From Escherichia coli (GTDB lineage: Bacteria > Pseudomonadota > Gammaproteobacteria > Enterobacterales > Enterobacteriaceae), in NCBI RefSeq assembly GCF_016026235.1, contig NZ_CP065613.1: a stretch of 64,000 bases of DNA; one strand, given 5' to 3'. A program made the translations under genes and the position numbers. This document shows, piece after piece, positions 55,979 through 56,472 of this stretch (its first letter is position 1; each line of letters begins with the position of its first letter). The notes beneath the pieces are model-generated. The model worked only from the letters and a program-made list of their open reading frames with translations. It was not told the DNA's origin and did not search any database.

Positions 55979-56472
55979 ATGGATCGAGAGTTAAAAAATC
56001 TGACGCTGAATATCAGTCAACTGGCGGCACTGTCAGGTGTACATCGCCAGACTGCTGCGGCAAGGCTGCAAAATCTACCCGTTGCAGGGGGCATGAAAGC
56101 AACCTCAAGCTTTATCGGGTGGTTGATATTGTGTCGGCATTTCTGGCATTACCACCGCCGGTTGCAGAAGGCGAAATGGACGCGCATGAGCGCAAAGCCT
56201 GGTATCAGTCTGAACGTGAGCGTCTTAAGTTCGAACAGGAAACGGCACAACTCATTCCGGCCAGTGATGTCAGACGGGAGTTTGCCATCTGGGCAAAAGC
56301 GGTCGTGCAGGTGCTGGAGACATTACCGGATATTCTTGAACGTGACTGCGGTCTGCAGCCTGCCGCTGTGAGCCGTGTTCAGTCCATTATTGATGATCTG
56401 CGCGATCAGATAGCCCTGCGGGTGACTGAAGCAGGTGCGGATGATGAGGAGGAATTACAGCAGGAGGAGTAA
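55979..56472 (+). pseudogene. Terminase small subunit, frameshifted in a G5 homopolymer (~56090)
   Basis: N-terminal HTH part in one frame, C-terminal part (...SNLKLYRVVDIVSAFLALPPPVAEGEMDAHERKAWYQSERERLKFEQ...) in the 55861-56472 frame; adding one G restores a ~164 aa protein. Confidence 0.6.

Follow-up and report, generated by a model that had tools for sequence, protein, structure and literature searches.

The packaging genes and the interrupted small terminase

The window, by which we mean the whole stretch of 64,000 nucleotides of the Escherichia coli contig NZ_CP065613.1 analysed here, contains a lambdoid prophage with an mEp460/Gifsy-2-type head module, in a Shigella-like E. coli. The gene under study, a predicted small terminase subunit, lies at the start of the packaging genes, and the surrounding features are arranged as follows.

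55788-55978, plus strand: probable cos region (cosN and cosB equivalent), delimited from the ends of the mEp460_4F5 record
55979-56092, plus strand: native N-terminal 38 codons of the small terminase (helix-turn-helix part of the predicted DNA-binding domain), equal to residues 1-38 of the intact 164-residue protein
56087-56091, plus strand: GGGGG run, site of the missing base, with six Gs in relatives
56093-56371, plus strand: out-of-frame tail of the 130-residue product, 92 codons and a stop, in the ORF 55979-56371
56092-56472, plus strand: remainder of the small terminase (residues 39-164), read in the shifted frame, matching the intact protein exactly and holding the rest of the DUF1441 match
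56176-56472, plus strand: possible internal-start fragment Met67-Glu164 (98 residues) devoid of the DNA-binding domain, from the gene-caller annotation of alleles with five Gs
56472-58574, plus strand: terminase large subunit of the gpA type, intact, 700 residues (Pfam GpA_ATPase 9e-72, GpA_nuclease 7e-84)
58783-60288, plus strand: lambda-family portal protein, intact, 501 residues (Pfam Phage_portal_2 6e-80)
60197-62293, plus strand: ClpP-like prohead protease and major capsid fusion, intact (Pfam CLP_protease and Phage_capsid_4, in agreement with the annotation of relatives)

The small terminase start codon, the ATG at 55979, is preceded by GGAGCGGG and opens a series of 38 codons, MDRELKNLTLNISQLAALSGVHRQTAAARLQNLPVAGG, in the frame with position modulo 3 equal to 2. 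The departure from the conserved frame occurs after codon 38, inside the GGGGG run (G5). Past the run, the starting frame continues for 92 non-homologous codons to a stop at 56369-56371, yielding the 130-residue ORF, and the conserved frame (position modulo 3 equal to 1) proceeds from the CAT at 56092 to the TAA at 56470-56472 as a part of the ORF 55861-56472. The original prediction, which had placed the N- and C-terminal parts in different frames and had proposed that one G inserted in a G5 run at ~56095 yields a continuous protein of ~164 residues, is thereby borne out, its position being close enough to that of the run. The repaired protein comprises 164 residues and is identical to that encoded by E. 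coli FDAARGOS_943, the nearest annotated relative, in which the gene is uninterrupted; over the 552 columns compared, the sole difference between the two sequences is G5 in the window against six Gs (G6) in FDAARGOS_943. The same run is the only indel against this genome over 8.6 kb, and the only one against the relatives L025, L031, L032, and L033 over 9.4-9.9 kb.

The uninterrupted frame of ~160-166 residues that typifies DUF1441 and PHROG 141 proteins is continuous in 25 diverse homologues, in which Gly38 is invariant, and is broken after codon 38 in the window, where neither ORF as sequenced covers the whole DUF1441 domain by itself. The 130-residue frameshift product has no exact copy in a collection of 15 billion proteins, and the 39-mer carrying G5 was not found in the GTDB species-representative genomes. 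On G5 alleles, as on alleles interrupted by IS1, gene callers report exactly the 98-residue Met67-Glu164 product (P0016). Taken as sequenced, this is a simple loss-of-function pseudogene. The feature is either an ordinary homopolymer frameshift or an error of assembly; the gene is of a familiar type, and no new mechanism is involved.

Regarding the identity of the gene, the repaired protein returns a hit with Pfam DUF1441 (PF07278; 2.7e-41, residues 10-150) at 141.4 bits, for a curated cutoff of 35.1 bits, and a second one with PHROG 141, "terminase small subunit" (7.2e-74, 248 bits, residues 1-164). As it lies far above the DUF1441 cutoff and matches PHROG 141 strongly, the repaired frame is not a chance pattern. 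It also reports a hit with PHROG 57, lambda Nu1's own family (8.2e-10), and reciprocally lambda Nu1, which matches PHROG 57 at 1e-76, matches PHROG 141 at 5.6e-8. These PHROG 141 and PHROG 57 matches, the overlap of the gene with the start of the gpA-type large terminase, and a relative (L029) with a Phage_Nu1 gene and gpA at the same position all support the name of small terminase subunit given in the original prediction, and suggest a remote homologue of Nu1. The three papers found to mention DUF1441 use it only as an annotation; as a by-product of this analysis, the name of Nu1-type small terminase can be given to DUF1441 proteins with reasonable confidence.

Structural comparisons are compatible with the same kind of N-terminal domain. 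Sequence searches of solved structures, performed with the single protein and with a 25-sequence profile, returned nothing meaningful. The AlphaFold2 model, computed from the 25 homologues (mean pLDDT 79), exhibits an N-terminal strand-helix-helix-strand-helix unit followed by long helices, the helices at residues 12-19 and 23-30 being the two helices of the helix-turn-helix motif. Foldseek reports that the N-terminal unit locally resembles MerR-like winged helix-turn-helix proteins, such as BldC (6ama, probability 0.94) and MtaN (1r8d), all with weak E-values.

The comparison with lambda gpNu1 reveals a similar genomic setting, since the window gene is also located directly upstream of a gpA-type large terminase, itself followed by a lambda-family portal. 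The N-terminal region can be aligned with the winged helix-turn-helix of Nu1, window LNISQLAALSGVHRQT...AGGHESNLKLY with Nu1 VNKKQLADIFGASIRT...GGGKGNEVLY, including the glycine-rich wing, and the two proteins cross-match each other's PHROG family. However, the pairwise similarity is limited to ~45 residues: hhalign superimposes residues 9-53 on residues 2-48 of lambda Nu1 with an E-value of 0.0026 over this length and a probability of only 11%, the comparison being made with the single lambda sequence. Furthermore, the window protein belongs to a separate Pfam family, DUF1441, and falls short of Pfam Phage_Nu1 (PF07471), with which the repaired protein returns no match even at E-values up to 10. 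The window head module contains a ClpP-protease/capsid fusion where lambda has C/Nu3/D/E, and the window gene, in contrast with that of lambda, is frameshifted. The closest described phages are mEp460, mEp460_4F5, Ayreon, phi458, and vB_EcoS-569R4, all with a Gifsy-2-type DUF1441 gene, which share 97-99% nucleotide identity with the window over the gene and have the same gene order. In mEp460, mEp460_4F5, and vB_EcoS-569R4, however, the tract is G6 and the gene is uninterrupted.

The small terminase TAA (56470-56472) overlaps the large terminase ATG at 56472 (TAATG), the exact large terminase sequence recurs in 232 blocks of the protein collection, and a small ORF occupies the gpW position between the large terminase and the portal. 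Upstream of the small terminase, both ends of the linear mEp460_4F5 record (LR595868.1) map to the window junction 55787/55788. The left end of this record, CCACGGGGCGGGAGCGG, is GC-rich and resembles the lambda left cohesive end, GGGCGGCGACCTCGCGGG. The junction lies 191 nt before the small terminase ATG, a spacing shared with lambda, in whose record nu1 begins at base 191. If we assume that the ends of LR595868.1, which may not be experimentally determined ends, are those of the packaged DNA, the segment 55788-55978 is probably the cos site, a candidate that the small terminase would recognise. An inverted repeat, CTGTAAT...ATTACAG, is located at ~55850-55872, inside this probable cos region.

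Replacements of the cassette are found in two relatives. L029 (10095-12504) possesses the same KilA-N gene and the same 58-residue gene, followed by a true Phage_Nu1 gene and gpA, and L034 (719-2895) possesses these same two genes followed by a Terminase_2 module. Therefore, the locus is the small-terminase position of a mosaic packaging cassette. Three unrelated packaging modules (DUF1441 with gpA, Phage_Nu1 with gpA, and Terminase_2) are thus observed behind one KilA-N gene, in a clean case of mosaic module exchange.

The G tract in relatives

The comparison of the tract with related prophages finds G6 in essentially all of them. The counts, obtained in the E. coli genomes with 65/66-nt probes and exact matches, are as follows.

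Complete E. coli genomes carrying the stretch (885): G6 exact in 879, G5 exact in 1, exact to neither in 5
IMG/VR viral contigs (115): G6 in 112, G5 in 2, GGGGGA in 1, G7 in 0

The phages mEp460, mEp460_4F5, and vB_EcoS-569R4 are all G6, and among contigs encoding an identical large terminase protein, the intact 164-residue gene is present in 9 of the 10 places shown. Judged from these sequences, G6 is the normal state of the tract. The lone G5 genome among the 885 is strain CRE10, in which RefSeq labels the gene "frameshifted", and a frameshifted protease-capsid (head) gene is also found nearby.

These counts bear on whether a full-length small terminase might still be made from G5, by a programmed -1 ribosomal frameshift or by transcriptional slippage. 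Restoring the frame does need a -1 shift at a homopolymer, as such a mechanism would have it, but ~97-99% of relatives, as well as phages deposited as isolates, carry G6 with a single continuous frame, and the sequence A GGG GGC does not fit the X XXY YYZ pattern of a slippery heptamer. A tract of five Gs is also well below the tract lengths that support efficient RNA polymerase slippage. The shifted arrangement is not conserved (G6 in 879/885 genomes, 112/115 viral contigs, and the three phages), and we rejected programmed frameshifting, to which we give practically no credence.

The G6 tract is the only G/C run of at least six bases in 54142-64000. It is therefore a natural hotspot for replication slippage and for consensus error alike, and on this sequence argument the run is a slippage hotspot whichever of the two is at work.

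G5 is in fact found on at least three distinct, near-identical haplotypes, each of which has a G6 twin. The first one is the window's own, and its twins are G6. Over 55366-58574 (3.2 kb), eight sequences show zero mismatches to the window (L018, L024, L025, L027, L028, L030, L031, and L033, of which L031 and L033 are short contigs). All eight carry G6, which makes G5 private to this assembly. The second haplotype is that of CP026875.1 (L013/L019, and probably also L074), with L139 as its G6 twin; in this genome, G5 is the only indel in the compared stretch, and the prophage apparently lacks ~160 bp within the portal gene. The third one is L088, with L017 as its G6 twin. G5 is also present in prophages ~91% identical to that of the window. 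A lineage inheriting G5 was looked for among the near-identical sequences and none was found, each G5 copy having a G6 twin of the same haplotype.

Deletion or consensus error

We lean, if only slightly, towards a real and recent replication-slippage deletion, private to this strain and affecting a prophage already decaying under relaxed selection. The state of that prophage is part of the argument, and the lesions concerned are the following.

32877-33946, minus strand: lambda-type integrase, split into 131-residue (Arm-DNA-binding) and 230-residue (catalytic) ORFs by the loss of 1 bp from a C5 run
39950-41214: IS600, in the early region of the prophage and next to the cIII thermoregulator RNA (41318-41376), just past it
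42409-43755: IS4-family transposase, between the N gene (41716-42132) and the cI-like repressor (43816-44550)

The integrase lesion, at ~33618, reads CCCC in the window and CCCCC in FDAARGOS_943. As at least 10 independent contigs, short-read (Logan) assemblies included, share this split allele, it exists in nature, and the window assembly therefore reports at least one such homopolymer lesion faithfully. The window resembles the homopolymer frameshift pseudogenes of other decaying Shigella and E. coli prophages, of which the equivalent G5 allele of CRE10, annotated by RefSeq simply as frameshifted, is an example: it has a single-base deletion in a G/C run, to which the prophage adds the integrase lesion and the IS600 and IS4-family insertions, and nothing in it is distinctive with respect to them.

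The alternative is a sequencing or consensus error, the real DNA having six Gs and an intact small terminase, and we regard it as possible, if somewhat short of probable. The privacy of G5 among eight zero-mismatch G6 relatives fits an error well, as does its rarity: G5 occurs in one of 885 complete E. coli genomes, CRE10, in which another head gene is frameshifted too. Where tract lengths were read directly, -1 is the only length variant (112 G6, 2 G5, and 0 G7 in IMG/VR), and the only G/C run of at least six bases in 54142-64000 is also where a long-read consensus deletion would be most likely. Assemblies rich in homopolymer deletions (L006, L007, L010, and L012) show the same miscall, and three of them, L006, L010, and L012, combine G5 with 9-13 other homopolymer deletions in 3.2 kb. 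All G5 carriers with a reported contig size are on contigs of at least 4 Mb. Related genomes hold several copies of the module (L018, L021, and L028 belong to one assembly). As the window itself runs across several IS copies and a prophage module that is repeated, it probably derives from a long-read or finished assembly. Short-read polishing often fails in repeats.

Against an error, no other indel is found in 9.9 kb in comparison with several relatives, and no core gene is broken in 32 kb: every chromosomal gene of the first 32 kb (ftsZ to lpd) is full length. With 10 G/C runs on the chromosomal side and 23 on the prophage side, there is too little power to ask whether homopolymer deletions avoid core genes. 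The integrase homopolymer frameshift, matching an allele of independent short-read assemblies, argues in the same direction, and the host lineage is pseudogene-prone. G5 as an isolated, sole indel in the compared stretch is seen in other assemblies too, and the otherwise clean G5 carriers include L011, L013, L014, and L002. With the slight preference stated above, we infer that the base is missing from the DNA, and not only from the assembly.

The recurrence of G5 could also be taken to mean that the tract acts as a phase-variable (contingency) switch, or as a hotspot under selection, by which hosts repeatedly silence prophage packaging. Its independent occurrence on at least three near-identical haplotypes and in the ~91% identical prophages would agree with this, together with a higher frequency among near-identical Shigella-like copies (3 carrier genomes among 38 sequences) than among complete E. 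coli genomes (1/885). However, no clade inheriting G5 was found, IMG/VR contains no G7, six Gs are short for a contingency tract, and a part of the G5 recurrence is demonstrably assembly error, whereas the enrichment is equally explained by relaxed selection or by repeat-rich long-read assemblies. We consider such a switch extremely improbable. In IMG/VR, only -1 variants were found (~2%), with no two-way polymorphism of the tract, and a phase-variable locus was rejected. The related proposal that the G6 tract is a genuine recurrent mutational hotspot, through which Shigella-like lineages repeatedly and independently switch off lambdoid prophage packaging, seems to us very unlikely. If true, it would represent a cheap form of prophage domestication or a block on helper-dependent mobilisation, the large terminase and the head genes being left intact.

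Consequences and surroundings of the prophage

The intact 164-residue protein is expected to bind cos, ~190 bp upstream of its gene, through its N-terminal winged helix-turn-helix, and to oligomerise and hold the gpA-type large terminase through its helical C-terminal half. Under the favoured reading, a recent replication slippage specific to the strain would have removed one G from the G6 tract, which spans codons 37-38, while the prophage was decaying under relaxed selection. The product would consist of 38 native and 92 nonsense residues, keeping the two helix-turn-helix helices and losing the wing, the oligomerisation region, and the terminase-binding region. The 98-residue internal-start fragment (Met67 onward), if made, would be devoid of the DNA-binding domain. 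The large terminase still has an AGGAGG Shine-Dalgarno sequence of its own, although the stop-start coupling with the upstream gene would presumably be lost.

If the deletion is real, the loss of packaging put forward in the original prediction would be expected by analogy with lambda Nu1, with neither cos recognition nor assembly with gpA. The prophage could not recognise its own cos and, with a broken integrase and IS insertions, would be a defective remnant, a status that is useful for predicting phage release by the strain and that is expected in Shigella-like genomes. The packaging defect itself would add little to a prophage whose integrase is already frameshifted and which carries two IS insertions. 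If instead the missing G is artefactual, it illustrates that errors in finished assemblies are commonest at the longest G/C run of a repeated prophage module. In both cases, the importance beyond annotation is small.

Over the first 20 kb of the window, the host shares 99.7% identity with FDAARGOS_943; it carries an IS3-family element and IS600. At 32791-32815, the integrase end of the prophage is joined to the lpd side of the chromosome, instead of ybhC (lambda attB) in relatives, and the junction core reads TTCTTATCAGTAAGTTGACA in the window as compared with TTTTTATACTAAGTTGGCA in relatives. This lpd-side junction points to either a rearrangement or the use of a secondary attachment site. 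It is also the exact point at which short-read contigs of related strains terminate, and the adjoining 228-residue ORF (32103-32789, minus strand) returns no Pfam match.

The middle of the prophage (35-54 kb) has no close relative among complete E. coli genomes. A sharp recombination breakpoint lies at 54142, inside the Rz lysis gene: downstream of it, the window is ~99.4-99.9% identical to L025-L033, and upstream the lysis cassette is of a different type, a combination not seen in any other contig examined. Prophage tRNA-Asn and tRNA-Thr genes are located downstream of the Q antiterminator, and matches to the prophage isrK and C4-antisense RNAs adjoin the antirepressor gene (53163-53318 and 50023-50207, coordinates that include the RNA matches).

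Three further observations concern the chromosomal part. A ~4.4-kb insert between aroP and pdhR holds a 593-residue ORF (20983-22764, plus strand) in which an Hcp (type VI secretion) domain is fused to Pyocin_S and colicin/pyocin DNase domains, and the 2 kb that follow (22764-24871) contain no ORF of at least 100 residues. Compared with FDAARGOS_943, whose gspE is annotated as partial, the window carries 28 additional bases (12056-12083) where hofC and gspE (hofB) meet. Lastly, the window lacks 12 bases at 17896, in a GPH-family symporter gene, with respect to the same genome, from which it also differs by an intergenic T9 against T8 at 7901.
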